A stretch of DNA of 32,000 nt from Candidatus Iainarchaeum sp. (GTDB lineage Archaea; Iainarchaeota; Iainarchaeia; Iainarchaeales; JAZDEL01): the NCBI GenBank assembly GCA_043808785.1, contig JAZDEL010000002.1, forward strand, positions 90,001 to 122,000, written 5' to 3'. Shown here in pieces: positions 3,596 through 29,114 of this stretch (positions are counted from its first letter, which is position 1; each line of letters opens with the position of its first letter). A program made the translations under genes and the position numbers. Below the pieces are notes generated by a model. The model searched no databases. It was not told the origin of the DNA and saw nothing but the letters and a program-made list of their open reading frames with translations.

Positions 3596-3628
3596 CCTTA
3601 TTTAAATATTTCGTCAATTGACGAACTA
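3596..3628 (-). promoter_or_regulatory. Perfect 16-nt palindrome TTCGTCAATTGACGAA (3610-3625) fused to a TATA-like box (minus-strand ATATTTAA, 3602-3609); putative promoter/operator of the small-pilin operon
   Basis: The palindrome directly abuts the stop codon of the ArsR-like gene. The ATG at 3576 is 25 nt past the TATA-like box, which fits a leaderless transcript. Confidence 0.65.
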
Positions 3629-4324
3629 ATCAGGAACGAGTTTTTTGCAGTATTTTATAAGCGCATTTATGTCCTGCAAAGTGAAGTTCCTGTCAATCGC
3701 AGAAGCCGCACTTTCTATGGCTGAGCAGTCATCCTCTGTAAACAGCCTTCCGCCTATGGTTCCTGTGCCCTCAGCAATGCCAGTTGCAATGCCGCCTTCG
3801 GTTGCAGAGCCGCCCGCGTCCGGCACTGTTTCCCCCTTTCCCCCGCCCTGCACGACTTCGCTTGTTTCCTCCGCCTCCCTGTTGCCCGCGCCCTTTTCCG
3901 CGGCAGCAGGCACGGCAAATGCAGGTTCGGTTCCGCCAGCATCCGTGAGGGCAGGGCCCTGTGCTGCGGGAATCCCCTGCATGCCCATATTCGAGAACAT
4001 TATCGCCATAATCCCCACAAGCGCTACAAGCGTTGCGCCAAGGACAATCAGTATATGCGTCTGGTTCTGCTCCGCATCAGCTATGCCTATTCCCTTGCCA
4101 GTGAGCGCGTAATATTTCCACTTCCTTCCTTCGTCCACGCGCTCTATGAAGCCCTTGTCCTGCAGCATCTGCAGGTGCTGTTTCGCGCTCGGCGCGGCAA
4201 TCCCCATTTTAGCGGAAATCTCGCTAAGGGTATGCCTGCGTTCCTTAAGCAGTTTGAGTATCTTTACGCGCGCGTCCGAACTGAGCGCCTTAAACTCTCC
4301 GGATGAAATAGTTATGTCCGCCAT
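3626..4324 (-). CDS. Membrane-tethered ArsR-family winged-helix transcription regulator
   Basis: The N-terminus LSSDARVKILKLLKERRHTLSEISAKMGIAAPSAKQHLQMLQDKGFIERV...KYYALT is an ArsR-type wHTH. One TM helix follows (ILIVLGATLVALVGIMAIMF), then a Gly/Ala/Glu-rich linker and a small C-terminal domain with 2 Cys. Confidence 0.8.
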   Translation of the reverse strand: MADITISSGEFKALSSDARVKILKLLKERRHTLSEISAKMGIAAPSAKQHLQMLQDKGFIERVDEGRKWKYYALTGKGIGIADAEQNQTHILIVLGATLVALVGIMAIMFSNMGMQGIPAAQGPALTDAGGTEPAFAVPAAAEKGAGNREAEETSEVVQGGGKGETVPDAGGSATEGGIATGIAEGTGTIGGRLFTEDDCSAIESAASAIDRNFTLQDINALIKYCKKLVPD

Positions 4325-5648: not shown

Positions 5649-6791
5649 ATGCCAAAGAACATCTTCTCCCGCACCAGCAGGGAGAGGCACATATTCCGCA
5701 ACGAGCAGTATCTCGCGCCGGAATTCCTGCCCGAAAAACTGCCGCACAGGGATTCCGAAATCGACACTATGGTTTACGCATTCAATCCTGTCCTGCGGGG
5801 CTCGAAGCCGCAGAACCTTTTTGTTTTCGGCCCCCCTGGGACGGGAAAAACCGCTTCCGTGAAATTCGTCCTCGCGCAGCTGGAGGAGCACTCCGACCGC
5901 GCAAAAATGCTCTACATAAATTGCTTCCAGCACGAGAGCAGGCATTCGGTTCTTGCCAAACTCACGAATTTTCTGGGAATGCCTGTGCCAAGGCGCGGCC
6001 TGGCAACGGATGAAACCTACTCTAAAATGGTGGAGGCAATGCGCAAGGCATCCTTTGCACCAATAATCATCCTTGACGAGGTGGACAATATCGCTGGCGC
6101 GGAGGAGCAGAGCCGCCTCCTGTATGACCTGCTGCGCGTTGCGGAGCAGGAAAAGAAGCAGCTCGGCTTAGTGCTTGTTTCAAATGACGCCGCATTCACA
6201 GCGCGCCTCGATGCGCGCGTGAAAAGTTCGCTCGCTGCCGAGAACCTTGCCTTCGAGCCCTACTCGCCGCAGCAACTGAAGGACATTCTGCGCGAGAGGG
6301 CGGGGTACGCGTTTGAACAGCGTGTTCTCGAGGATGATGTAATTAACGTTGCCGCAGCGCACGCTGCAAAGCTCGGCGGCGATGCGCGCATCGCAATAGA
6401 GTGCCTCCTGAAGGCGGGAAGGAATGCCGAGCGTGATAACGCGGCAAGCGTAACCATCGCGCACCTGAAGCGTGCCTTCGAAAGCATTGATTCCCTCCCT
6501 ACCCTCAAAAAAATCCGCGGCCTGAACGAAAACGAAAAAAACCTGCTAAGGGTTATTGTGCAGGCGCAGGAGGAAAGCATACTTTCAGGCGACCTTTACA
6601 AAAAGTACAATTCATCGGTTCCCAAGGGTTCAAAAGCGCTGACCGAGCGCAGGGTGCGCGACTTCCTGAACAACCTTGAAAAGCAGGGTCTTGTTGAGAT
6701 AAGCGCGGTTGATTTGGGCAACAAGGGCAAGACCCGCAGCATACGCCTGAGGGTTGCGAAGCAGCTTGCACTGCGGGAACTTGGGAACTGA
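5649..6791 (+). CDS. cdc6: Orc1/Cdc6 replication initiator
   Basis: Contains Walker A GPPGTGKT, Walker B IIILDEVD, a SNDxxF sensor region and a C-terminal winged helix. The 380-aa length is typical. Confidence 0.95.
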   Translation: MPKNIFSRTSRERHIFRNEQYLAPEFLPEKLPHRDSEIDTMVYAFNPVLRGSKPQNLFVFGPPGTGKTASVKFVLAQLEEHSDRAKMLYINCFQHESRHSVLAKLTNFLGMPVPRRGLATDETYSKMVEAMRKASFAPIIILDEVDNIAGAEEQSRLLYDLLRVAEQEKKQLGLVLVSNDAAFTARLDARVKSSLAAENLAFEPYSPQQLKDILRERAGYAFEQRVLEDDVINVAAAHAAKLGGDARIAIECLLKAGRNAERDNAASVTIAHLKRAFESIDSLPTLKKIRGLNENEKNLLRVIVQAQEESILSGDLYKKYNSSVPKGSKALTERRVRDFLNNLEKQGLVEISAVDLGNKGKTRSIRLRVAKQLALRELGN

Positions 6792-16031: not shown

Positions 16032-16397
16032 ATGCACATGATGCTTGAAGTGCTGCAGGCGTTCATTTCCCTTGACATCGCATATTTCCTGCACATGATA
16101 GAGGCGAACCTTTTCTGGATTTTCGGCCTTGCGGCAGGCGCATATTACCTCAGCAACGGCAAGGGCATATGGCGCGACTTCGCGCTCATAAGCATAATAA
16201 TTTTCGGCAGCCTTGCTATACAGGAATATTTCGATGTTTCCATTTACATTGCGGAAGTGCTGCTGTTCATGTACATCTCGAGGGTTGTTGCGCTGCTGCT
16301 CCTTGAGAACACCCCCGGCTGGAGCAAATATATACCGCACGCGTGGGTATTCACATGGTGGGCAACATGGATTGGGTATAACCTTTTCATGAAGTGA
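16032..16397 (+). CDS. Hypothetical polytopic membrane protein (paralog of 15487-15858)
   Basis: ATG verified. It has about 4 TM helices and the N-terminal motif VLQAFISLDIAYF. Confidence 0.6.
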   Translation: MHMMLEVLQAFISLDIAYFLHMIEANLFWIFGLAAGAYYLSNGKGIWRDFALISIIIFGSLAIQEYFDVSIYIAEVLLFMYISRVVALLLLENTPGWSKYIPHAWVFTWWATWIGYNLFMK

Positions 16398-16456
16398 TTT
16401 TACGGCATGGGCAAAAACGGTTTCATGAAGTGATTTTATGGTCTGGCTAAAAAGAA
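16385..16456. repeat. Tandem 36-nt duplication of a gene junction (first 18 nt identical, about 28 of 36 overall)
   Basis: TTTCATGAAGTGATTTTA occurs at 16385-16402 and again at 16421-16438. The second copy supplies the ATG at 16438; the first copy has ACG in its place. Confidence 0.85.
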
Positions 16457-17619: not shown

Positions 17620-18306
17620 ATGGAACTTCAATTTCTAGGCCACTCATTTTTCAGGGTTGCGGGGGAAGGCACCACAGTGCTGTTCGACCCTCTCCTGAAT
17701 TTCAGGCCGAGGGCGGACGGTTTGAAGCCCTCGCTGAAACAGCAGGCGCAGAAATCCAAACTGCTCGACGATGTTTCCCTTCTTGTAATTTCCCATGAAC
17801 ATACGGACCATTTCGACAAGGCGGCGATAGAGGAGGCGGCATCAAAAAACAACGCATGCATTGTGGCGCACGATTCCGTGCTCTCGCAGTTAAGCCTGCC
17901 GAAGCCCATGCTGCGCGCCGTTTCCGCGGGGGACAAAATAAGCCTGCGCGGCTGCGAAATTGAGGCAATACCCGCGCACCATCCGCAGGCTTTTTATCCC
18001 TTGAGTTTCCTGCTCACCCTCGGCGGCAAAAGAATATTTTTCGCGGGCGACACGGACCTTACAGACACGCTCACGCGGGTAAAGGCGGACGTTGCACTGC
18101 TCCCCATAGGCGGCACTTACACGATGGATTTGGTGGACGCGGTGCGCGCGACAAAGGCAATAAAGCCGCAGTACGCGATACCCATGCACTACAACACATA
18201 CCCCGAGATAAAGGCGGACCCGCACGAGTTCAGGCAGAGGATTGAGAAGAGCATACTGAAAACAAAGGCAGTTGTGCTTGAGCAGGGGGAATGTTTCAAG
18301 TTTTAG
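17620..18306 (+). CDS. Metallo-beta-lactamase-fold hydrolase (UPF0173-like)
   Basis: Contains the HEHTDH (HxHxDH) motif plus downstream His/Asp ligands. ATG at 17620; the ORF-track extension to 17221 lies antisense to the neighbouring gene. Confidence 0.85.
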   Translation: MELQFLGHSFFRVAGEGTTVLFDPLLNFRPRADGLKPSLKQQAQKSKLLDDVSLLVISHEHTDHFDKAAIEEAASKNNACIVAHDSVLSQLSLPKPMLRAVSAGDKISLRGCEIEAIPAHHPQAFYPLSFLLTLGGKRIFFAGDTDLTDTLTRVKADVALLPIGGTYTMDLVDAVRATKAIKPQYAIPMHYNTYPEIKADPHEFRQRIEKSILKTKAVVLEQGECFKF

Positions 18307-18320
18307 CCTTACAGCATCTT

Positions 18321-19031
18321 TCACGGCAGTTCGCTTTCGTTCGCCTTTTTCAGGTCATCCAAATCGCCGATATCAATGCACGCCCCTGCGTAATGCACAA
18401 CAGCAACTTTCCCCCCCGCGCGCATGAGGATTTTTATGCTGTCCACGATCTCGAACTCCCCGCGCGCGCTTTTTTTTGTTTTCCCTATCGCGCCGAATAT
18501 CTTCTGGTTGAACCTGTAAATGCCGGCGTTTATCAGGTTGCCGGGCTCCTCCCCATAGTTCGGCTTCTCGACGATATCCCTGAGGGTGCCGCCCTCCTCC
18601 ACAAGCACGCCGTAGCGCCAGGGGTCATCAACTGTTCTTCCCACAACTTTGACATCAAAATCATCAAACTCGTCAATGGTTGCGAGTTCGCGGAACAGCG
18701 CGCTTTCGACAAGCACGTCCGCGTTCACAACTAAAAAATTCCCTTTCACGCGCCCGCGCGCGAGCGCAATTGCGTGCGCGGTGCCCAGCTGCTCCGCCTG
18801 GAAAAGGTAATTTACCGGCACGCCGGCAAAGCTTTTGCCGAAGTGCTTTTCAATTTCCTCGCGCCTGTATCCCACGACAATCTCAAACCCGCCAATCCCC
18901 GCTTCCGCAAGCCGCGCAAGAACGTGCTCGAGCAATGGCTTGCCCTTTACCTTGACCATCACTTTTGGGATTTTTTCAGTGAGCGGCCTGAGCCTGACTC
19001 CCCTGCCCGCCGCAAGAATAACCGCTTTCAT
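18321..19031 (-). CDS. Sugar-phosphate nucleotidyltransferase (glucose-1-phosphate thymidylyl/uridylyltransferase-like, short form)
   Basis: MKAVILAAGRGVRLRPLTEKIPKVMV is the GxGxRxxPLT signature. A Rossmann-like fold follows, with no C-terminal LbH domain. ATG at 19031. Confidence 0.88.
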   Translation of the reverse strand: MKAVILAAGRGVRLRPLTEKIPKVMVKVKGKPLLEHVLARLAEAGIGGFEIVVGYRREEIEKHFGKSFAGVPVNYLFQAEQLGTAHAIALARGRVKGNFLVVNADVLVESALFRELATIDEFDDFDVKVVGRTVDDPWRYGVLVEEGGTLRDIVEKPNYGEEPGNLINAGIYRFNQKIFGAIGKTKKSARGEFEIVDSIKILMRAGGKVAVVHYAGACIDIGDLDDLKKANESELP

Positions 19032-19038
19032 ATCCAAG

Positions 19039-19201
19039 CCCCGAAAACAAAAAAACAAAACGCGCGCTAATTGGCTGTTGCCAATTGCGCCCATTTTGGC
19101 GCAAGCCAAAATAGGGCGGTTACGCGGCGGGTTCGCAAACCGCGCGGCAAACCTGCCGCGGCTCCACAAACCCCGCAAACCGCGTTTTGTTTTTATTTTT
19201 C
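19039..19201. repeat. About 160-bp structured intergenic element bounded by imperfect inverted A/T-rich termini
   Basis: The left end is GAAAACAAAAAAACAAAACGCG (19043-19064). The reverse complement of the right end is GAAAAATAAAAACAAAACGCG (19181-19201), matching at about 19 of 22 positions. The interior holds at least three hairpins. Confidence 0.6.
19061..19118. repeat. Two-hairpin module, copy 1
   Basis: Hairpin 1 is AATTGGC-tgtt-GCCAATT (19069-19086). Hairpin 2 is CGCCCATTTTGGC-gcaa-GCCAAAATAGGGCG (19088-19118), 13 bp with one bulged A. The module is near-identical to 27268-27326. Confidence 0.7.
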
Positions 19202-19206
19202 TGCGT

Positions 19207-20133
19207 TCACAAATCAATCTCCATCAAATCATCAGCAACTGTAACGTCCCCGAACTCCCTTCTTGCCTCGTGCTCTATCGCCTTCGCGTCCTTGTGCCTC
19301 GGCGAAATGTGCATGAGCACAAGCCTCTTCGCGCCTGTAAGTGCGGCGGCCTTTCCCGCTTCAAGCGCCGTGCTGTGTTTCGTCTCCAGGGCGCGCCCCC
19401 CCAACTTGTCCATGAACGAGCACTCGTGTATCAAAAGGTCGGAGCCCTTAATCACATTGTGGTATGATTTGTTCGGCAGCGTGTCCCACACTATGGAAAC
19501 CTTTTTGCCGCTGCGCGCTTTCGAGTAATCCATAACCTGCTCGGGCTTAAACGTTTTCATTTTACCTTTTACCTTAACTTTCACGCTCTCCCCCTTCTGC
19601 AGTTTTCCCCACACGGGGCCTTCCGGAATGCCGAGTTCCAGTGCCTTCGCGCGCTGGAACTCCCCGCTCTTCCCCTGCTCCTCGAACACATATCCGTGGC
19701 AGGGCACATCGTGGTCGAGCGGGAACGCGTGCACCGCGAAATCCTTGCCCTCCAGAACCTGCCCCTTCCCCTGCACTTCCTTGCACCTCACTTCAAAATT
19801 CACGCGCAGCATGCTCATCTCTATCGCCTTCTTCACCCATGACGCAATTCCGCGCGGGCCGTAAATGAAAAGCGGATAATCGCGCCCGTGCATGCTCATT
19901 GTCGCAAGCAATCCGGGGAGGCCGAGAAAGTGGTCCCCGTGAAAGTGCGAAATGAAAATATGCGAAATGCGCATGTAGGAAACGCCGGCCTTCATCATCT
20001 GCCTCTGCGTTCCCTCGGGGCAGTCGAAGAGCAGCCACTCCCCGCCCTCTCGTATCGCCACGCTGCTCAGGTTCCTCTCCTTTGTAGGGGTACTGCAGCT
20101 CGTGCCGAGGAATATTATTTTCAGGTGTGCCAT
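19207..20133 (-). CDS. rnz: Ribonuclease Z (tRNA 3' endonuclease)
   Basis: Contains LKIIFLGTSCSTPTKERNLSS and HISHFHGDHFLGLPGLL (HxHxDH). The flexible-arm region and length are typical of the short form. ATG at 20133. Confidence 0.92.
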   Translation of the reverse strand: MAHLKIIFLGTSCSTPTKERNLSSVAIREGGEWLLFDCPEGTQRQMMKAGVSYMRISHIFISHFHGDHFLGLPGLLATMSMHGRDYPLFIYGPRGIASWVKKAIEMSMLRVNFEVRCKEVQGKGQVLEGKDFAVHAFPLDHDVPCHGYVFEEQGKSGEFQRAKALELGIPEGPVWGKLQKGESVKVKVKGKMKTFKPEQVMDYSKARSGKKVSIVWDTLPNKSYHNVIKGSDLLIHECSFMDKLGGRALETKHSTALEAGKAAALTGAKRLVLMHISPRHKDAKAIEHEARREFGDVTVADDLMEIDL

Positions 20134-20261
20134 AAAAACCACGTTCGCAATTGCACAATTGCCTGCACAACTATTTAACTAATATCTTGTATTTAAAACG
20201 AACTACCTGTTGTTTTTTGGGGGGTTTTTTGGGTACGCGTTTGTGTTTTTGGTTATTTAAT

Positions 20262-20297
20262 CCGCAAACCGCGTTTTTGTTTTTTTATTTTTCGGGG
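20262..20297 (+). repeat. Third copy of the T-rich terminal motif (CCGCAAACCGCGTTTTTGTTTTTTTATTTTTCGGGG)
   Basis: It matches 19073-19201 (CCGCAAACCGCGTTTTGTTTTTATTTTTC) and the reverse complement of 19039-19066 (CGCGCGTTTTGTTTTTTTGTTTTCGGGG). Confidence 0.7.
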
Positions 20298-20365
20298 TGC
20301 GCATTCCGCACTTCCCCCCTGTAAAACAATCAGCCTTTTAACTCTTATTATAGTGAATAATCATC

Positions 20366-22354
20366 ATGCCCTCCCCTAAGAAAAAACCCAAGCCGCAGGC
20401 GGATGAAGCCAAGGCACAGCCCGCGGGCGCGGATTTCAGTTACAAATCAACCGCCGAGATAAGGGTGCCGGAAAAACTCATTGACCAGGTCGTGGGGCAG
20501 GAGAACTGCGTGGAATTAATCCGCAAGGCTGCCGCGCAGAAGAGGAATGTCCTGCTTATCGGAATCCCCGGCACGGGCAAATCAATGCTCGCGCAGGCAA
20601 TGGCGGAGATAATGCCCGTGAGCAGGCTTTACGACATAATGATTTACCACAATGATGAGGACCCCAACAACCCGAAGGTGCAGGCTGTTGCAGCGGGCGA
20701 AGGGAAAAAAATCACCGAGCAGGCGCGCATAGAGAGCAAGGCACAGGATGACAACATGCGCCTTGTGGGCCTCGTGCTTCCCATAGGGTGGTCGATACTT
20801 TGCTGGGCGCTCTGGCAGTTCGGCTTCCTGCCCGATGTTGTTTATGCGGCAAGCCTCATACTCAGCGGCTTCCTTATCATAGGGTTTTCACTCGGCTCGC
20901 AGATGCGCGTCAGGATGGGCGGCACAGCGCCGAAATTGCTGATAAATAACGCCGGCAAGAAGATTGCGCCCTTTGTGGAGGGCACGGGCGCAAGGGCTGG
21001 CGCTTTGCTCGGCGACGTTCGCCATGACCCGCTGCAGAGCGGCGGACTGGGGACGCCCGCACACCTGCGCGTTGAGCCGGGCATGATACACCGCGCTTCG
21101 GGCGGGGTTTTGTTTCTGGATGAGATAGCAACCCTCGGCCCGAAAAGCCAGCAGGAACTCCTGACAGCAATGCAGGAAAAGAAATATTCAATCACGGGCC
21201 AGAGCGAAATGTCCAGCGGCGCAATGACGCGCACTGACCCCGTGCCCTGCGATTTCGTGCTTGTTGCCTCGGGCAATTATGACGACCTCAGGCGCGTTCA
21301 TCCCGCATTGAGGTCGCGCATAAGGGGCTATGGCTACGAGGTTTACATGAACATGGACACGCCCGACACGGAAGAAAACAGGAACAAGCTCGTGCAGTTC
21401 GTTGCGCAGGAAGTGAAGAAGGACGGAAGCATACCGCACTTCGCAAAGGACGCGGTTGATGTGCTGATCTTCGAGGCGCGCAGGCGCGCGGACAGGAAAA
21501 ACCGCCTCACCCTCAAGCTGCGCGATTTGGGCGGCCTGATACGCGCCGCGGGCGACATTGCAAAAGCCAAAGGCCATGCGCTTGTTGACGCGCAGGACGT
21601 TTACGAGGCAAGGCTGAGCGCACGCACCCTGGAACAGCAGATGGTGAACAAGATGCTTGAGGAAAAGAAGGATTACGACGTTTATCTGTTCAAGGGCACG
21701 GCAATAGGCAGGGTCAACGGCCTTGCAGTGAGCGCCGACGGGGATGCGGGGCTTATCCTGCCCATCGAGGCCGAGGTTGCGCCTGCGCAGAGCTCAGCGG
21801 AGGGAAAGCTGATTGCCACAGGAAAACTCGGGGAAATCGCAAAGGAGGCAGTGCAGAACGTTTCCGCGATAATAAAGCGCCTCTCGGGAAAGGACATAAG
21901 CAGGCACGATTTGCACATACAGTTCCTGCAGAGTTACTCGGGAGTGGAGGGGGACAGTGCAAGCGTTTCTGTTGCAACTGCCGTGGTTTCCGCGCTTGAG
22001 GGCATACCCGTAAAGCAGTCCCTTGCTATGACGGGCTCCCTCAGCGTGAGGGGCGAGGTTCTGCCTGTCGGCGGCGTCAGCGCAAAGGTTTCCGCCGCAA
22101 TAACCGCGGGCTTCGAGGAAGTTATAGTGCCGAGGGCGAATGTCGACGACATAGTCATAAAGGCCGACCGCCTTGCGAAAATAAAGATAATACCTGTTTC
22201 AACCATTGCCGATGTGCTGGAGCACGCCTTTGTTGCGGGGAGCGCGAAATCCAAACTCCTCGCCAACCTTAAGAAAATCCTGCATGCGGGCGTTCAGTCG
22301 GATGAAAAAATCCCGCTTGCGGAGAAGCCCGTTCCTGAAAAGGCGGCGTGCTAG
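20366..22354 (+). CDS. lon: Archaeal membrane-bound Lon protease (LonB)
   Basis: Contains Walker A GIPGTGKS, two TM helices inserted in the AAA+ domain, Walker B VLFLDEI, the protease Ser motif GVEGDSAS and a downstream Lys. Confidence 0.95.
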
Positions 22355-22369
22355 TTGATTGGCTGCTGC

Positions 22370-23773
22370 TCAGGGCTCCATGCACATTCTCTTCATTACA
22401 TCTTCCCTGTCGGGTATTTTCCCGCAGAGCGATTTGTCGCCGTGGTGCGGCCCGGTCCCGACTACAAGGAAGTAATAGCAGCTCCCTTTCCCCGAGGAGC
22501 TGTCGCTCATCAAATCGCACTCTGCGGCATTCCGTTCGGTTATTGCCTTGTTGAAATGTAACTGGTCCTTGCACTTCTGCTTATAGCCCGCATCGGATAT
22601 CTTCCCGCACTCCGCCATATCTTCTTTTGAAATTGCATTCGAATAAATTTCCTTGTCTTCCGTGCTCTGGTTCCTCCCGAGCAGGCTTTCGGTACAGTCC
22701 TGCCTTCCCTCTGCGCTTTCTATCTTATTGCACATTGCCAAGTTATACCGTTGCACGCACCCTTCTCTGAACTGCTGCGAACTTATGTTGTTGCACATCG
22801 TAACATCTCCTTCCTTAACCGCAATTGTTATGAAACAATTTGCCTGGCCGGATTCTCCAAGCACGGTGCTTGTGTCCATCTTCCTGCAGAGCCCTTCATC
22901 ATTGCCCCTTTCCGCAATGTCGTTGTAGCAGGTGTTCCTCGAATGTGCCATTGTTTGGATGGTGCTCTCTTTTGGCAGGGCTTCGCAGTATGAACTATCC
23001 CCCGTTGCCAGGGCTTTGCAGTGATTTCTCGCGTCCTCATCAGAAACCCATTTGCAGAGGCTGCCGTCCCCCGACTCGGAGGCAACATCGTAATAGCAGC
23101 TTTCTGCCCACCCATAGCCGCTGTCATCAGATAGGAGGTCGCAGATTGCGGGGTCTTTTTTCGCATTTGCAACGTCCCTTATGCAGCTGTTCCTGTACGT
23201 GCTTTCACTTAATTCCTTGTCAAATTCTATCTTTTCGCATATGGATGCATCAAGCATTGCAACAGCCCGGGCAGTGAAAACCTCCTTTTTGCAGAAATCC
23301 GACTTGCTTTTCCCCATTTCTTTCATATATCCCTCGCCCTGGTATGCCTTATCCTTCAATATCCTTTCGCAGATTTCCTCGTCCAGTTCCGCAACGGCAA
23401 TTGCGCTTACACAGTTGTCCCTCTTTGAGTTATCGCTGAGCTGTTCGCACATTGCCGGGTCGCGCGCGGCAAGCGCCTTTTCAGGGATGCCTGTATCCTT
23501 TGCCTCCCAGACTGCCTCATAGCAGTGCTGCTTTTTCACCGCGTCTTCAGGGGCGCTGACTGCAATTTCGTTGCAGATTGCCGTGTCTTTCGCTGCAACA
23601 GCCCTTGCCGTTATTTTCTCCTCGTCAGTCATTTGTGCGCTTCCGCCCGCGGGGCTGCCGGTGCCCCGCCCTCCCTGCTGCTGCCCCGCAAGTTCCTGCG
23701 GCTGCGGGCAGCCTGAAAGCAGGATAATTGCGGCAAGCGCGGCAAAAAAAAGCAAAGCACAATTTCCCTTCAT
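22370..23773 (-). CDS. Cysteine-paired repeat lipoprotein (hypothetical)
   Basis: It has a signal peptide with the lipobox-like LLSGC and a Gln/Gly-rich linker. About 13 degenerate repeats of roughly 30 aa follow, each with two Cys (pattern D-x3-C-x9-20-C). Confidence 0.75.
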   Translation of the reverse strand: MKGNCALLFFAALAAIILLSGCPQPQELAGQQQGGRGTGSPAGGSAQMTDEEKITARAVAAKDTAICNEIAVSAPEDAVKKQHCYEAVWEAKDTGIPEKALAARDPAMCEQLSDNSKRDNCVSAIAVAELDEEICERILKDKAYQGEGYMKEMGKSKSDFCKKEVFTARAVAMLDASICEKIEFDKELSESTYRNSCIRDVANAKKDPAICDLLSDDSGYGWAESCYYDVASESGDGSLCKWVSDEDARNHCKALATGDSSYCEALPKESTIQTMAHSRNTCYNDIAERGNDEGLCRKMDTSTVLGESGQANCFITIAVKEGDVTMCNNISSQQFREGCVQRYNLAMCNKIESAEGRQDCTESLLGRNQSTEDKEIYSNAISKEDMAECGKISDAGYKQKCKDQLHFNKAITERNAAECDLMSDSSSGKGSCYYFLVVGTGPHHGDKSLCGKIPDREDVMKRMCMEP

Positions 23774-23777
23774 AAAA

Positions 23778-25025
23778 TCACCCCACTACAAGCACGCGCC
23801 CTTCGCGCAGCACGAACTGCTTCTTCTTCAGCGCAATGACATCCTTGCTCTTGATGTCCCTGTAATCTATCGTGTTCTTTGCGGGCGCGACATTCTCCAC
23901 TTTGCCGAGCCATGTCCCGTCGCGGTTGTAAACCGGAAGCCCTATGAGGAGTTTAGTCACCTTCTTTCTCACGTCAAGCACTCCAGAAACGTAATATGCC
24001 GCAAGCGCGAAAACGAAAGCGAACAGCACATTGGTGCTGAACCAGATGAGGTCCGCGTGCGCCTCCCCTGCAATAACCTGCCTTCCCGAATCCACGATGA
24101 ACCACAGCACCAGCGCCGCAACCGCGTACATGAAATACCTGCGCAGGTAGAACGCCTTCTTGAAGTGCAGTGCGTCTATTGCGCGCCCGATAATGAATGC
24201 GAGGGCGGCAATGGTTGCGAAATCTATTGCCTGCCTCGAGGCGGCGCCGGCCTGCGTGAAAATATTCAGGTTCTCCCCGCTCATCACTTCCCCCACGGCG
24301 GAAAGAACGCCGAAAATAAGGAGCAGCAGTGCGGCAAGGTATGCGGGAAAGCTTACGCGCTGCAGGGAGAATGAGCGCGTCGCGGATTTTATCCCGCCGG
24401 CAATAATTTCCTCAAGCCCCGTTCCCCTGAGCACGAGGTAAATGCCGACAACAAAAAGTATGGCCTGGAACAGCACGACCTCCATATCCAGTATTGAGAG
24501 CACGCCCCAGAGCAGCACAACAACGCCCGGCATGAGGAAAACAATCCGCGCTATTGCGGGATCCTTGAGCGCCTCCTTTATCGTGTAATAAGTGCTTTCA
24601 ACCTCCTTCGCCTGCTTCACAATCACGAGTTCCTTTGAAATTATCCGCACCCTGCCCTGGAGTATGGGTATTGTGGAATCGTCCTCCGCGCCGTCGGTAA
24701 CAAGGATTATCCCGTCCGCAGGAAACTTCTCAAGCACTGCATCCAGCTGCTCGTTAATCATCCTGTCGCTCTCGAAGCCCTTCTTGCTGTGCCCTGTAAG
24801 CGTAACGACCTCGACATTCGCAAAGTGCCCCTTTACCTCGTCATACTTCTTGACCGCGGCGAAAATGCTGTTTGCGTCGCTCTCGCCGGGGTCCGCAAGT
24901 GCCAATTTTGCGGCAATATTGAGGTTCTTTTGCCTCCCCACTATGGGGCCCTGTACATTTATCTTCCTGCCCAGATCGTTGTCCCTGTCTACGCAAACAA
25001 TCAGGGCGCTTTTTACTTCCCTCAT
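23778..25025 (-). CDS. DUF373-like polytopic membrane protein with a C-terminal PRC-barrel-like tail
   Basis: The N-terminal cytosolic domain LIVCVDRDNDLGRK...ALADPGESDANSIFAA resembles archaeal DUF373. About 6 TM helices follow. The C-terminus GLPVYNRDGTWLGKVENV is PRC-barrel-like. ATG at 25025; 25034 is GTG. Confidence 0.7.
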   Translation of the reverse strand: MREVKSALIVCVDRDNDLGRKINVQGPIVGRQKNLNIAAKLALADPGESDANSIFAAVKKYDEVKGHFANVEVVTLTGHSKKGFESDRMINEQLDAVLEKFPADGIILVTDGAEDDSTIPILQGRVRIISKELVIVKQAKEVESTYYTIKEALKDPAIARIVFLMPGVVVLLWGVLSILDMEVVLFQAILFVVGIYLVLRGTGLEEIIAGGIKSATRSFSLQRVSFPAYLAALLLLIFGVLSAVGEVMSGENLNIFTQAGAASRQAIDFATIAALAFIIGRAIDALHFKKAFYLRRYFMYAVAALVLWFIVDSGRQVIAGEAHADLIWFSTNVLFAFVFALAAYYVSGVLDVRKKVTKLLIGLPVYNRDGTWLGKVENVAPAKNTIDYRDIKSKDVIALKKKQFVLREGRVLVVG

Positions 25026-25135
25026 TTCGTACACCTGCGGGCGATTGTAAAGGTATTTATACTTACTTATATGGATATTCTTATATATAAACCATAACCG
25101 AAACGCCGTAAATCGGCGTTTTCAGGGTGTTTGTT

Positions 25136-26185
25136 ATGCTCGCCGAAACCTTGAAACAGCTGGTTTTCATAGCGGTAATTGCGTTCATTGTCTTCATACT
25201 TTTCGCCATGGTACAGTACCAGGATTTCATAACCCGCAACGCGCTCTGGATTATTGCCGCGGGAGTGCTGCTCTTCGCCGTATGGAAATACGACTTCATA
25301 ATAATGATGAAGGAATACGAGCGCGCCGTGATTTTCCGTTTCGGCAAGGTTATCCGCGTCGGCGGCCCCGGCTGGGCGGTGGTTTTGCCGCCGATAGAGG
25401 GCTACACAAAGGTGGACCTGCGCACGCACACAATCGATGTGCCGAAGCAGGACGTCATAACCAGGGACGGCATCCAGCTGAGTATTGACGCGATTGTCTA
25501 CCTCAAGGTAAGGAGCGACGACCGGTGCGTGATAAATTCCGTTGTTGAGGTCGAGGACTACGAGCGCGCGGTAATGCTGTACGTTGTGGCGACAATCCGC
25601 GACCTGATAGGCAGCATGACGCTCGACGAGGTCATTTCCAAGACAGAGGTGCTGAGCGAAACCCTGAAGAAGGAGACCGAGGAAATCTCGAAGGAGTGGG
25701 GGGTGCAGGTGGAAACTGTGGAACTGAAAGACGTCGACATCCCCCCCAAAGTCATAGAGGCGATGCACGAGCAGAAGGCGGCCGTGCAGAGGAAGCTTGC
25801 AAGGATGGAGGAGGCGGAAGCGCACAGGGTTGAAATCGACGCGGTGAAATCCGCGGCGGAACAGCTCAGCGACAAGGCGCTGTCATACTATTACATCCGC
25901 GCGCTCGAGCGCATAGGCGACGGCAAGGCCACGAAAATAATTTTCCCGCTGGAGTTCAGCAGCCTGCTTGGGGCAATTGCAGGCAGGCAGGCGATAAACA
26001 AAACCCCGCAGGGCATAGAGGTAAAGGGGGAAGCGATAAAGGAATATGCCCCGCTGATTGCGGAATACCTGCGCATGGAGAAGGAGAACAGGGAGCGGGA
26101 AGGCGCGGGAGAGAAGGCGGGAAAGGAGAGCAGGGGCAAGGGCAAAGACGAGAAATCCGATAAGGGGCGCGGAAAAAAGGAATAG
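25136..26185 (+). CDS. SPFH/band-7 (stomatin/prohibitin-like) membrane protein with a Lys/Glu/Gly-rich tail
   Basis: An N-terminal TM anchor is followed by YERAVIFRFGK...GPGWAVVLPPIE...IDVPKQDVITRDG, a coiled coil, and a KGKDEKSDKGRGKKE tail. Confidence 0.9.
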   Translation: MLAETLKQLVFIAVIAFIVFILFAMVQYQDFITRNALWIIAAGVLLFAVWKYDFIIMMKEYERAVIFRFGKVIRVGGPGWAVVLPPIEGYTKVDLRTHTIDVPKQDVITRDGIQLSIDAIVYLKVRSDDRCVINSVVEVEDYERAVMLYVVATIRDLIGSMTLDEVISKTEVLSETLKKETEEISKEWGVQVETVELKDVDIPPKVIEAMHEQKAAVQRKLARMEEAEAHRVEIDAVKSAAEQLSDKALSYYYIRALERIGDGKATKIIFPLEFSSLLGAIAGRQAINKTPQGIEVKGEAIKEYAPLIAEYLRMEKENREREGAGEKAGKESRGKGKDEKSDKGRGKKE

Positions 26186-26192
26186 TCCTGAT

Positions 26193-27119
26193 TCATCCCC
26201 CGACTATTAACCACGCCTCTATAAGCGCGCCGAACGCAAGCACCGCATAAGCCAGAAGAACAAGCACCGCGGCATCCTTCGTTATAATCCAGAACTCCTT
26301 TGTGTGGAATCTCCTCTTCGTCACCTCTACCGAGATAACGCCGCCCGCAATCGCCCCGATGAAATACCCCATAATCTCGGGTATGCCGTGCGGCAGGTAT
26401 CCTATCGCCCTTGCAAGCCCCGCAAATACATGCACGTTAAGCATCTCCTTCCCTATGAAAACCCCTATTACCGAGGCGTTCCAGCCTATGAGGAAAATCG
26501 CCCCCGCGCCGTATATGAAAGAAAGCAAAATTGCAAGCCCTAGCACAATCGCGTTGTTGTTGAAAATCAGGCCGAAGCATCCGCCCAAGCTTCGCGTTTC
26601 AGGGTCCTTGCACTCGGTAACCCCCACGCCCCCTGTGCTTGCAGCGGCATCCCCTGTTGTTGCGGTCGCCTTGCCGGTTATCGTGGAAAATGTTTTCTCC
26701 TGCTCGGCAAACACCGAGTCCCTTGCGGGAATAATGCACTCAATCTCTGAGGAGCCGCCTGTGCAGTATGTGGGCGTCTCCGCAGGCAGCACAACATACC
26801 ATAAACTGAAACTCGCGACCAGCCCTATTGTGAGCCATGCATAAACCCTGACAATGCAGAAATGCCTTGCAAGGAACCCTATTGCCCAGCCGGGCTTTGA
26901 CGCCTCCTCCTGGGTTTCCATGCAGAGCAGCTTGTTTATAAGCGGCGCAACCCCTATTGTCACGAATGCAATCGCGAGCACGCTTGTGTGTGCGGGAAAA
27001 ATATAGTGTACCGTCCATATCCCGACCGTGGAAAGGAGCACGCCCTCAAGGAACATGAGGAAACTGTGCTTTTTTGCAAGCCCCACTCCCGGCAGGTTTT
27101 CAAGGACCATCCAAACCAT
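26193..27119 (-). CDS. SpoIIM/DUF95-like integral membrane protein
   Basis: Contains NASVIGVFIG and YLPHGIPEIMGYFIGAIAGG motifs. The start is uncertain: ATG at 27119 or 27110, or GTG at 27197. Confidence 0.72.
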   Translation of the reverse strand: MVWMVLENLPGVGLAKKHSFLMFLEGVLLSTVGIWTVHYIFPAHTSVLAIAFVTIGVAPLINKLLCMETQEEASKPGWAIGFLARHFCIVRVYAWLTIGLVASFSLWYVVLPAETPTYCTGGSSEIECIIPARDSVFAEQEKTFSTITGKATATTGDAAASTGGVGVTECKDPETRSLGGCFGLIFNNNAIVLGLAILLSFIYGAGAIFLIGWNASVIGVFIGKEMLNVHVFAGLARAIGYLPHGIPEIMGYFIGAIAGGVISVEVTKRRFHTKEFWIITKDAAVLVLLAYAVLAFGALIEAWLIVGG

Positions 27120-27233
27120 CTCGCCCCGCGGTTTTGTGCCTGCGCGTTCCCGCAGCTGCCCTGCAGAGGTGCGGGGTTTGTTGTGCGCGCCCCGCACTCT
27201 CCCTAACCCTCTGTAACCATAACGATACGATGG

Positions 27234-27241
27234 TTTAAATA
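27234..27241. promoter_or_regulatory. TATA-like box TTTAAATA in a divergent intergenic region
   Basis: It is the only strong TATA-like element between the SpoIIM-like gene and csl4. It lies about 30 nt upstream of two-hairpin module copy 2. Confidence 0.45.
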
Positions 27242-27267
27242 GATTTCTTTGTTAAGTTTCCTTTGTA

Positions 27268-27332
27268 AACGCGCTATTCGGCTTGTGCCGAATGCGCCCA
27301 TTTTGGCTGAAAGCCAAAATAGGGCGTTTTTT
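27268..27332 (+). repeat. Two-hairpin module, copy 2, followed by T6
   Basis: Hairpin 1 is ATTCGGC-ttgt-GCCGAAT (27276-27293). Hairpin 2 is CGCCCATTTTGGC-tgaaa-GCCAAAATAGGGCG (27295-27326). TTTTTT follows at 27327-27332, and the csl4 ATG is at 27346. Confidence 0.7.
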
Positions 27333-27345
27333 GGGGCGTATTTTT

Positions 27346-27915
27346 ATGGCTAAAGAAAAGGATAGCATTGTTTTCCCCGGCTCTTTCCTGAGCGCCGAGG
27401 AGGAATTCAGCGCGGGCAGGAACGCCTTTGCCAGCGGCGGCACCGTGCTTTCCGAATGCACGGGGGTTTGCGAACTGGATAAGGCGGCGCGCGAAGCGAA
27501 TGTTTCCTGCAACCGCAGGGTTGCCGCGCCTCTTGACATGGGTTCGGTTGTTGTAGGGGTAGTTGCAATGGTAAAGGAAAATGCCGCGGTTATAGAGATG
27601 ATGCAGGCAAGCAACAGGGGCGAGCCGCGCGTGATACTTGCCTCGTACGCAAGCCTGCCGATATTCAATATAAGCAACGATTATGTCGAGCAGATACGCG
27701 ACGCCGTGAAAATAGGCGATGTTGTAAAGGCGGTTGCGGTGAAAGTCCTGCCGCACGGAGTCGACCTCTCGATAAAGGACCCCGAGTTCGGGGTTGTGAA
27801 AGCGTTCTGCGCAAAGTGCAGGCAGCCGATGCAGCTCTTCGGGCAGAAGCTCATGTGCTCCGCCTGCGGGCGCACGGAGGCAAGGAAAATTTCCAGGGAT
27901 TACAGGCTTAAATAG
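27346..27915 (+). CDS. csl4: Exosome complex RNA-binding subunit Csl4
   Basis: The N-terminal domain is IVFPGSFLSAEEEFSAGRN. An S1-like central domain follows, then a C-terminal zinc ribbon CAKC...CSAC. It is adjacent to rpoL, as in many archaea. Confidence 0.88.
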   Translation: MAKEKDSIVFPGSFLSAEEEFSAGRNAFASGGTVLSECTGVCELDKAAREANVSCNRRVAAPLDMGSVVVGVVAMVKENAAVIEMMQASNRGEPRVILASYASLPIFNISNDYVEQIRDAVKIGDVVKAVAVKVLPHGVDLSIKDPEFGVVKAFCAKCRQPMQLFGQKLMCSACGRTEARKISRDYRLK

Positions 27916-27959
27916 TTCGCGCGGTTCACAAGGCAGGCGCAGTTCACGGAGGAATTCAA

Positions 27960-28235
27960 ATGGAGCTTGAAGTCACGAAAAAAGAATCCAATTATCTCGA
28001 GTTCACCATAAAGGGCGAGAGGCACACTTTCCCGAACCTTCTCAAGGCAGCGCTCCTCAACCAGGACGGGATTGAATTCATTTCATACGTGCTCGACCAC
28101 CCTTTGGGCAACAACGCCAAGTTCGTGCTGCGCACAAAGGGCAAAAGCCCCGAGAAGGCCTTGTCATCCGCGTGCACCGAGATAGAGAAGAACATTGCCG
28201 ATTTCCAGAAAGCCGTGAAGAAGGCGCTGAAGTAG
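27960..28235 (+). CDS. rpoL: DNA-directed RNA polymerase subunit L (Rpo11)
   Basis: Contains LEFTIKGERHTFPNLLKAALL...FISYVLDHPL. It is 91 aa long, with a GGAGG Shine-Dalgarno sequence upstream. Confidence 0.88.
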   Translation: MELEVTKKESNYLEFTIKGERHTFPNLLKAALLNQDGIEFISYVLDHPLGNNAKFVLRTKGKSPEKALSSACTEIEKNIADFQKAVKKALK

Positions 28236-28352
28236 GGGCAAGTTGCGTTTGCGAAGGCTGTGCACGGAAGGCGGAAAATGCACCGAAGCGGGTTTGCAGC
28301 GCCGCTGCAGAGGCAGCAAACCGCTGCGGGCAGTGAGAAGGCTGTGAAACCA

Positions 28353-29114
28353 ATGCTCTCCAAACTCCGCAAAAACCTGAAATGGCTCGACCCGTTCACA
28401 TATGTGGACCTTTTTGTGATGCCGCGCCTGAACCCGAAAGACAACGAATACCTTGGCTGGGCAATTTACATATTCTTTGCCTTTGTTTTTGCGCTCGCTT
28501 TTTACACGCTCCTCGGCCTTGCCCTGAACACAAATTCCCCGCTGATGATTGTGGTTTCCGCCTCGATGGAGCCCGTGCTCTACCGCGGCGATGTCGTGCT
28601 TTTGCAGGGCGTTCCCCCGCAGAGCCTGAACGCGCCGCTTGTTGAACTTGATGCGCAAACCCTGCGCAACACAGCGCTTATTGATTTCGCGCAAATCGGA
28701 TATGAACTCGGCGATGACGGCGTGCTCAGGTCGAAAATCCTGGATTTCGGAAACGGCAAAAAAACCGAGATAACAACAAACGGCGATATTGTGGTTTATT
28801 TCTCGGAACTGCGCAACGAGCCGATAATCCACCGCGCCGTGGCAAAGCTGCACGCAAAGGACGGATATTACATAATCACAAAGGGCGACAATTACACGAA
28901 AAACACGACCGTCGACCAGGACTGCGGAAAGGTTTTCAGCGGCATGCCCTCAAAGCCCTGCATAAACCTCTATCCCCAGCCAGCCGAGAAACTCGACGGG
29001 AGAATGATTCTCAAAATCCCCTTCCTCGGCTGCGCAAAGCTCTGGCTTATGGATGATTTGGCAACACTGCTCACGCAGGGGAAACTGCCCGCGAACTTCG
29101 GCGGGGTTTGCTGA
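28353..29114 (+). CDS. Signal peptidase I, archaeal/eukaryal Sec11 type (S26B), with an insertion of about 50 aa
   Basis: It has a TM anchor, the Ser box VVSASMEPVLYRGDVVLL, the His box EPIIHRAV, and ITKGDNYTKN...DQD. Alternative in-frame starts are ATG 28278 and GTG 28260. Confidence 0.85.
   Translation: MLSKLRKNLKWLDPFTYVDLFVMPRLNPKDNEYLGWAIYIFFAFVFALAFYTLLGLALNTNSPLMIVVSASMEPVLYRGDVVLLQGVPPQSLNAPLVELDAQTLRNTALIDFAQIGYELGDDGVLRSKILDFGNGKKTEITTNGDIVVYFSELRNEPIIHRAVAKLHAKDGYYIITKGDNYTKNTTVDQDCGKVFSGMPSKPCINLYPQPAEKLDGRMILKIPFLGCAKLWLMDDLATLLTQGKLPANFGGVC

Follow-up and report, generated by a model that had tools for sequence, protein, structure and literature searches.

REP, REPIN, BIME and MITE sequences are well studied in bacteria, where they influence mRNA stability, termination and genome plasticity. 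In the IS608/TnpA system, imperfect hairpins with an extrahelical base are recognised as single-stranded DNA. REP dimers inserted within palindromes, as well as intragenic REPs, have been described in bacteria (PMC3733652). According to the literature, RAYTs and REPINs come from bacteria only (bioRxiv 10.1101/2021.07.10.451892; PMC6006769), REPINs having reportedly escaped detection in archaea (bioRxiv 10.1101/2021.07.10.451892), and the Y1 transposases reported from archaea are of the IS200 type only (PMC6006769). REP-like palindromes, loosely defined, are described from Euryarchaeota and Crenarchaeota in a 2025 tool paper (PMC12306157), and MITEs are reported at high density in some DPANN genomes (PMC11602168).

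The 32-kb window, by which we mean the whole stretch of DNA analysed here, has a G+C content of 53% and an archaeal gene content (LonB, DUF373, Cdc6/Orc1, PheRS, RpoL and Csl4 among others, from Pfam). On its forward strand it holds two copies of a module made of two abutting hairpins, copy 1 at 19065–19116 and copy 2 at 27272–27324; inspection of the sequence bore out the first-pass annotation, which had placed two copies of a repeated two-hairpin module at these sites. The individual hairpins, or units, were called from the sequence, a bulged-hairpin scan, and RNA and DNA folds. Hairpin 1 of copy 1 (19065–19089, +) reads CGC-T-AATTGGC-TGTT-GCCAATT-GCG, with a CGC/GCG outer stem, a bulged T at 19068, an AATTGGC/GCCAATT inner stem and a TGTT loop. 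It is followed by hairpin 2 (19090–19116, +), CCC-ATTTTGGC-GCAA-GCCAAAAT-A-GGG, in which a CCC/GGG outer stem and an ATTTTGGC/GCCAAAAT inner stem enclose a GCAA loop and the bulged A lies at 19113. The corresponding units of copy 2 are CGC-T-ATTCGGC-TTGT-GCCGAAT-GCG (hairpin 1, 27272–27296, +) and CCC-ATTTTGGC-TGAAA-GCCAAAAT-A-GGG (hairpin 2, 27297–27324, +). Both the two compensated positions of hairpin 1 (A:T to T:A and T:A to C:G) and the loop differences between the copies are as first described. When both strands of both copies were folded, as that annotation had suggested, all of them beat their shuffles, with z-scores of −3.3 to −6.5 as RNA and −4.3 to −6.3 as DNA. A covariance model run over the 32 kb with filters off matched 19061–19119 (80.6 bits) and 27268–27327 (75.6 bits); no third copy was found in the window, where the next-best match scored 13.5 bits. 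The repeat is not due to chance, because the expected number of occurrences of the hairpin 2 pattern in shuffles of the window was 0.00.

Across all copies the module spans ~52–60 nt, and its two hairpins are inverted copies of one ~25–30-nt unit set head to head. Each unit comprises a 3-bp outer stem, a 1-nt bulge, a 7–9-bp inner stem and a 3–5-nt loop. The consensus is YGC-T-[inner stem, A/T-rich then G/C-rich, 7–9 bp]-loop of 3–5 nt-[inner stem]-GCR for unit 1, and CSC-[ATTTTGSC]-loop-[GSCAAAAT]-A-GSG for unit 2. Hairpin 1 repeats the design of hairpin 2 in reverse complement, which makes the whole module dyad-symmetric, with the bulged T in the 5′ arm of unit 1 mirroring the bulged A in the 3′ arm of unit 2. 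Owing to this inverted arrangement, the same pair of bulged hairpins is available on either strand; indeed, the opposite strand of modules scores 42–55 bits with the covariance model. The outer ends are conserved as GCTA...TAGS, the foot being (Y)GCTA on unit 1 and TAGS(G) on unit 2.

The layout first proposed for the two copies was correct as to the two hairpins, but it had also given the outermost CG/CG pairs to hairpin 2, for which the other copies offer no support. We reassigned these two pairs to hairpin 1 because perfect covariation links the R of TGCRC to the Y preceding GCTA (C:G in 9 modules, U:A in 5). In L002 the next outer pair of hairpin 1 is compensated too (GCAC/GTGC), and in the TGCAC variants the position concerned would give an A:C mismatch if paired within hairpin 2. 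A bulged-hairpin scan (window, 12 module-bearing loci including L083, L084–L086) revealed no solitary units; at those loci, units of this design occur solely as doublets.

The base pairing of the module is under selection. In a paralog alignment of 14 modules from three sources, 98% of pair cells held standard pairs, with no mismatch in the two main helices, and changes on both sides had occurred at 9/21 pairs (hairpin 1, 6/9). The covariation score was 0.323 compared with 0.113 in shuffles, and 0/500 shuffles reached the observed values. As a control, the 3′ partners were slid by 1–3 columns, and pairing fell to 28–45%. RNAalifold, to which the structure was not supplied, predicted an identical two-hairpin fold. 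The alignment contains three G:U pairs, all on the module sense strand and amounting to ~2 independent events, and no A:C cells, while loop sequences vary freely between paralogs. The invariance of hairpin 2 is partly owed to the search patterns used; compensated variants of this hairpin, found independently of those patterns, are GCATTTTGCC/GGCAAAATAGC in L001b and in the outer modules of L003 and L006, and L076 has a CAC/GTG outer stem. The earlier suggestion, made from two copies, that selection acts on pairing and not on sequence thus gained strength on the larger set, and at least 16 further copies lie in other genomes, again with compensated changes.

One genome per species was scanned for the hairpin 2 core. 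The scan gave 10 matches, 8 of them in a single MAG, ‘Candidatus Iainarchaeum archaeon’ JBDRDO01, in which pattern scan, covariance model and hairpin scan together found at least 11 modules at 8 loci. The hairpin 1 arms within this MAG read TTCGGC, ATTGGC, TTTGGGC, GTTGGGC, TTCGGGC and ATTGGGC, and a change in one arm is always accompanied by a change in the other. Of 71 matches in a metagenome scan, 5 are modules. Four of these (L034, L046, L059 and L072) have TTTTTGCC/GGCAAAAA or TTTTTCC/GGAAAAA as hairpin 1 and lie on contigs with a G+C content of 44–49%; the fifth, L076, is a more distant copy. The remaining 66/71 were unrelated hairpins, many of them CATTTTGGCC...GGCCAAAATAG stems situated directly 3′ of bacterial tRNA genes or intragenic. 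Viral contigs yielded no module and a single chance match, and relatives at 55–88% protein identity had no module in 73 kb. Genes adjoining the modules are unrelated to one another (rpl3, rps19e, secY, MCM, proteasome alpha, a Bro-N protein, csl4 and NTP-transferase), and both orientations relative to neighbouring genes occur.

Copy 1 of the window lies in an intergenic spacer of 175 nt (19032–19206) between an NTP-transferase gene (18321–19031, −) and a tRNase Z-like gene (19207–20142, −), both identified by Pfam. It is antisense to both, with its 5′ end ~33 nt from the NTP-transferase ATG. At 4/4 orthologous sites examined (L085, L086, L087 and L090) the copy is absent. The two genes are separated there by 3 nt in L090, by 25 nt in L086 and L087, and by ~160 nt in L085, with no module in between; L084 has another gene order at the copy 1 site and likewise lacks a module there.

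Modules also lie inside one another. In L003 and L006 a complete module sits inside the hairpin 2 loop of an outer module, whose own hairpin 2 (GCATTTTGCC/GGCAAAATAGC) is compensated relative to that of the inner one, and in L005/L010 a complete module sits inside the hairpin 1 loop. The outer hairpins of these nested composites keep perfect pairing around the insert, and the composites fold with z = −5.5, −8.1 and −7.2. L003 and L006, which lie in different gene contexts, are paralogous composites with 90% identity over 89 nt; their stems differ by paired insertions. Flanks of the module are often CG on either side, short and self-complementary; nested junctions have G before and CA after the insert, or AG before and CG after, with no duplication.

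At a further locus (L001, 6691–6750) the module is in frame in the 3′ tail of rpl3. A contig from another sample, L088, is without the rpl3 module and most of the adjoining repeat and has a shorter uL3 tail; its aligned flanks are identical to those of L001 on both sides of the gap, with 100% identity over 391 nt upstream of rpl3. Both this locus and the empty copy 1 sites show insertion polymorphism between related genomes. Near some modules of JBDRDO01 we found a separate repeat, R2, which is also found apart from modules and within the coding sequences of uL3, eL31 and a membrane protein. We considered and rejected the idea that the module belongs to a larger conserved RNA, as the ...GGTCCAC... 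and GGATC-ACGCGCG-GATCC sequences downstream of some copies are R2. The first-pass annotation had set against its own proposal the case of mobile-element duplicates subject to random drift. Half of that case fits: nesting, presence/absence and in-frame insertion point to a repeat that is dispersed and probably mobile. Random drift, however, does not account for the differences between copies, because pairing is kept throughout.

With moderate confidence, we interpret the module as a non-autonomous palindromic repeat of the REP/REPIN or MITE kind, present in a few lineages of the DPANN class Iainarchaeia and sometimes co-opted by the host. The module is dispersed, occurs only as a doublet and in both orientations, is nested in loops, has an in-frame copy and differs in presence between close relatives. 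Like REP, REPIN and BIME sequences, it consists of short imperfect palindromic units of ~25–30 nt in inverted doublets, has a conserved tetranucleotide at the outer hairpin foot together with a variable stem tip and loop, and is mostly intergenic and dispersed, with pairing kept between copies. As with REPs and BIMEs, it forms mosaics with other small repeats (here R2 in JBDRDO01), and REP dimers inside other palindromes (PMC3733652) parallel its nesting.

In several respects, however, the module departs from REPs and REPINs. Its host is an archaeon; its tag is GCTA/TAGS, and neither GTAG nor CGTC is present; its units abut without a spacer and form two hairpins of their own instead of pairing with one another; and each unit has a conserved 1-nt bulge. 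The copies found number ~11 or more per MAG and probably tens at most, whereas classical REPs number hundreds. No RAYT, and no ORF with an HUH-Y1 motif, was found in 156 kb of relevant loci, which is a small part of each genome. Because GTAG/CGTC and a spacer are lacking, the bulge is conserved and the copy number is apparently low, we treat the module as REP-doublet-like and not as a REPIN–RAYT member.

The likeness to MITEs lies in its small size, non-coding nature, intergenic bias, presence/absence between relatives and lineage specificity, and in imperfect terminal inverted repeats of 11–12 nt (YGCTATTnnGGC ... GCCAAAATAGSG). Compared with MITEs, a module of 52–60 nt is near the lower size limit reported, its interior consists of nothing but the two palindromes, no clear target-site duplication can be seen, and the loci examined contain no autonomous insertion sequence that shares its ends. 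Among the larger ORFs of the window, Pfam scans found no transposase families. A TA duplication at CTAG, in the style of IS630/mariner, is unlikely, and we rejected it because the flanking 5′ YGC pairs and covaries with the internal GCR.

Imperfect hairpins with an extrahelical base and insertion without evident target duplication also bring the module close to IS200/IS605 elements, a transposase family that is present in archaea (PMC6006769). In those elements, however, the hairpins of the left and right ends point the same way on one strand, whereas those of the module are mirror images, and neither tnpA nor tnpB lies near the modules. The copy in the uL3 tail recalls Rickettsia palindromic elements (RPEs), in-frame palindromic repeats that are translated as an extra peptide, and R2 does so likewise in uL3, eL31 and a membrane protein. 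RPEs are longer, at ~100–150 nt, and bacterial, and only one module copy is intragenic. The rpl3 copy is similar, too, to intragenic REPs, in which a palindromic repeat lies within a coding gene (PMC3733652).

By analogy with REP–RAYT and IS200/IS605, a repeat of this kind may spread at the DNA level through a folded single-stranded hairpin intermediate. Recognition would then be at the conserved GCTA/TAGS foot and the bulge, as the HUH/Y1 analogy suggests, and not at the variable stem tip. Only copies still able to fold would propagate, which would produce the covariation, and single-stranded loops would serve as targets for new copies. Such an intermediate would explain the sequence-conserved foot, the kept pairing, the copies in loops and the apparent lack of target duplication together. 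Copies inside transcripts would add stable hairpins to the mRNAs concerned, and some copies may have been recruited by the host, for example in the csl4 promoter region.

A bolder form of this interpretation, which we put forward only tentatively, is that the module might be the first REPIN-like system in Archaea: a doublet of bulged hairpins that a hairpin-recognising enzyme copies via single-stranded DNA, inserted preferentially into loops, tolerated in frame in ribosomal protein tails and recruited by the host at csl4 as a core promoter or regulatory element. Recursive nesting would, on such a REPIN-like account, result from preferential insertion into single-stranded hairpin loops. Self-nesting, covarying hairpin doublets in very small DPANN genomes would extend REP/MITE biology to a second domain, and the module provides a concrete sequence with which to seek an archaeal hairpin-specific transposase or nuclease. 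It also exemplifies repeats written into ribosomal protein tails, and at one site a promoter may have recruited a repeat.

The candidate for recruitment is copy 2, which lies in a divergent intergenic region (27111–27345) between a SpoIIM-like gene (26193–27110 or –27197, −) and csl4 (27346–27915, +), both assigned by Pfam. Copy 2 has the same sense as csl4, and 21 nt separate its end from the csl4 ATG. The 3′ arm of its hairpin 2, CCAAAATAGG, occupies −32 to −23 from this ATG, which is the expected TATA position, the TATA-like boxes of genes in this window being found ~24–32 nt before start codons; the arm may have been taken over as the csl4 TATA box. A second TATA-like sequence, TTTAAATA at 27236–27243, is centred ~26 nt before the start of copy 2, and TTTTTT follows directly 3′ of hairpin 2. 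TTTAAATA may belong to the divergently transcribed SpoIIM-like gene; alternatively, it might promote a transcript that begins at the module and runs into TTTTTT. In L083, a syntenic contig with ~78–84% DNA identity to the window (78% over the whole 9.5 kb), copy 2 is unchanged, loops included, and positions 27206–27395 are at least 95% identical (~98%), the longest such patch in the 9.5 kb. The identity of copy 2 in a relative whose genome is only ~80% identical points to host-level constraint rather than selfish turnover.

Conservation of this kind would also suit a second reading, which we consider rather unlikely: a structured RNA motif, either cis-acting (a protein-binding, stability or processing element in 5′ UTRs and intercistronic spacers) or, at some loci, a small RNA with a ~65-nt transcript of its own. 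The strong covariation and freely varying loops are what such a motif would show. That 3/3 G:U pairs are on the sense strand, with no A:C, hints at a strand-specific fold, 2/3 events being independent. Several copies must be sense-transcribed in mRNAs, at the rpl3–rpl4 junction and, judging by position, upstream of rps19e and csl4; the dyad symmetry would give an antisense transcript the identical two-hairpin architecture. Copy 2 itself is flanked by TTTAAATA and TTTTTT in the region that is ~98% conserved in L083, and at 7/10 loci a start codon lies within 60 nt downstream of the module, a position that also fits a regulatory role, although such proximity is weak evidence in compact genomes.

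A match to a known RNA family is absent, however, as had been judged by eye: Rfam 15 gave 0 matches in the window at the gathering threshold, permissive E-values (≤5 for window positions 18000–28500; ≤1 for 7 loci) gave only chance miRNA matches elsewhere, and ARAGORN reported no tRNA or tmRNA. When every copy was inspected for a TATA box 22–30 nt upstream and a downstream T-run, no consistent signal or constant distance emerged. Suitably placed A/T-rich boxes accompany only some copies (copy 2 of the window and L009) and are absent from L001b, L002, L005 and L007. Copy 1 of the window, L001a, L003 and L072 are antisense to flanking genes, and the G:T pair of L072 would become an A:C mismatch in the read-through mRNA. 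Nesting, an in-frame coding copy and an indel between near-identical strains are unexpected for a family of regulatory motifs, and the host genes share no common function. The discrete RNA element envisaged in the first-pass annotation is, on these grounds (no Rfam match, no constant promoter or terminator, both orientations, unrelated genes), not supported. Its further suggestions, a DNA cruciform or a protein-binding hairpin, may apply.

We regard as improbable that the module is a double-stranded DNA operator, that is, two neighbouring palindromes bound by a dimeric transcription factor, or a promoter module. In favour of this, each unit is an inverted repeat, the module lies 20–60 nt upstream of a start codon at 7/10 loci, CCAAAATAGG stands at −32 to −23 of csl4, a TATA-like position among the window genes, and the csl4 promoter region is nearly invariant in L083. 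A single base-reading factor would not tolerate the six hairpin 1 arm sequences of JBDRDO01, however, and the symmetric co-change of both arms argues for single-strand base pairing and not for base-specific reading of the duplex by one factor. The loop, which would be the operator’s spacer, varies in length from 3 to 5 nt, and neither the nested copies nor the rpl3 copy are promoter sites. A conventional-looking candidate operator in the window (TTCGTCAATTGACGAA beside ATATTTAA) looks quite different. Chance or trivial duplication without a selected structure, which would suit the presence of only two copies in 32 kb with an identical hairpin 2, as in a recent duplicate, is extremely improbable given 0.00 expected matches, at least 16 further copies in other genomes that are all paired via compensated changes, and shuffle and slide controls that do not reproduce the pairing.

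Other known elements were compared with the module and rejected. Mirrored bulged hairpins, variable stems and 3–5-nt loops do not fit a CRISPR repeat, a dif/Xer site, an ORB origin box or a bulge-helix-bulge motif, nor do they fit a K-turn or H/ACA and C/D boxes. For the integron attC site (RYYYAAC...GTTRRRY), only GTTGGGC/GCCCAAC of L005 fits, by accident, the remaining copies reading ATTGGC, TTCGGC or TTTTTGCC; the module, moreover, has two hairpins, not one.

In practical terms, the module is a recognisable marker. It breaks assemblies, as at the contig ends of L005/L010, and could mislead the prediction of ncRNAs or ORFs in these MAGs. A case in point is L088, where uL3 as called includes an N-terminal extension that runs through a module.

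The module, two abutting bulged hairpins, also occurs as part of a longer repeat. In the Ga0190313 metagenome it forms the 3' 65 nt of a ~240-nt repeat, three copies of which lie at different loci on three module-bearing contigs (L034, 606-845; L046, 297-535; L072, 7141-7375) and share 83-93% identity. The same ~240-nt unit contains a 14-bp A/T-rich hairpin (AAAATTTTGTTGTA...TACAACAAAATTTT), TATA-like boxes and, on the opposite strand, a 23-codon ORF.

A distant module was found on another metagenome contig, L076 (845-903), in a locally G+C-rich stretch of a contig with 37% G+C. Its hairpin 1 is TTTGAGC/GCTCAAA, the outer stem of its hairpin 2 is CAC/GTG, and after the module comes GGTCCAC..., a feature shared with L005 and L006 of the Ca. 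Iainarchaeum metagenome-assembled genome (MAG) JBDRDO01. Two contigs of that assembly, L005 and L010, both terminate in, and overlap across, a nested module of 141 nt that is 100% identical between them (L005, 2551-2691; L010, 1970-2110); this nested module appears to break the JBDRDO01 assembly.

The same MAG carries a second small repeat, R2 (GGCGCACGGATCACGCGCGGATCCTTCCGCGCA), whose copies are 100% identical (L001, 6752-6782; L002, 4764-4800; L003, 423-460 and 6777-6803) and contain overlapping hairpins. Three of the four R2 copies lie in coding sequence and are translated in one common frame (HGSRADPSAQ), as part of the C-terminal tail of uL3, of eL31 or of a membrane protein. Relative to the module, R2 is adjoining in some cases (L003 and L001b, the module in the rpl3 3' tail) and solitary in others.

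Many bacterial metagenome contigs share a recurrent hairpin, CATTTTGGCC-loop-GGCCAAAATAG(AGCAG...), which lies immediately 3' of an apparent tRNA gene 3' end (...GGTTCGA.TCC...; L018, L020, L023-25, L029, L038, L039, L041, L044, L051, L055, L058, L065, L073 and L081). This bacterial hairpin is unrelated to the archaeal module.

Around the tRNase Z-like gene of the window, a T-rich motif, CCGCAAACCGCGTTTT(T)GTTTTT(TT)ATTTTT, is present on both sides (19173-19205 and 20262-20294; 82% identity between copies), and one copy forms the end of the spacer hosting module copy 1. The motif could be a terminator or a promoter-type signal. In L085 (1235-1310), a relative without the module at this site, the tRNase Z-like gene ends in a stretch of ~16 nt (GGAAATTGAGGTG) that recurs ~55 nt downstream, with the second copy falling in the spacer that precedes the NTP-transferase gene.

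Elsewhere in the window, an inverted pair of TTCGTCAAT(C/T)(A/G)ACGAA, a 16-bp palindrome, occurs at 1141-1175 and 3598-3633, 2.4 kb apart. Both palindromes adjoin ATATTTAA, and an ArsR/TrmB-like HTH gene (3626-4324) extends into one of them with its 3' end; together, palindrome and ATATTTAA look like a shared candidate operator with a TATA box. The Cdc6/Orc1 gene (5649-6791) is only 9 nt from a divergent AP-endonuclease-like gene, so that an origin of replication with ORB boxes would not fit upstream of it. An intergenic tandem repeat at 16371-16442 consists of two 36-nt units (...TTTCATGAAGTGATTTTA.GG.) that are 78% identical.
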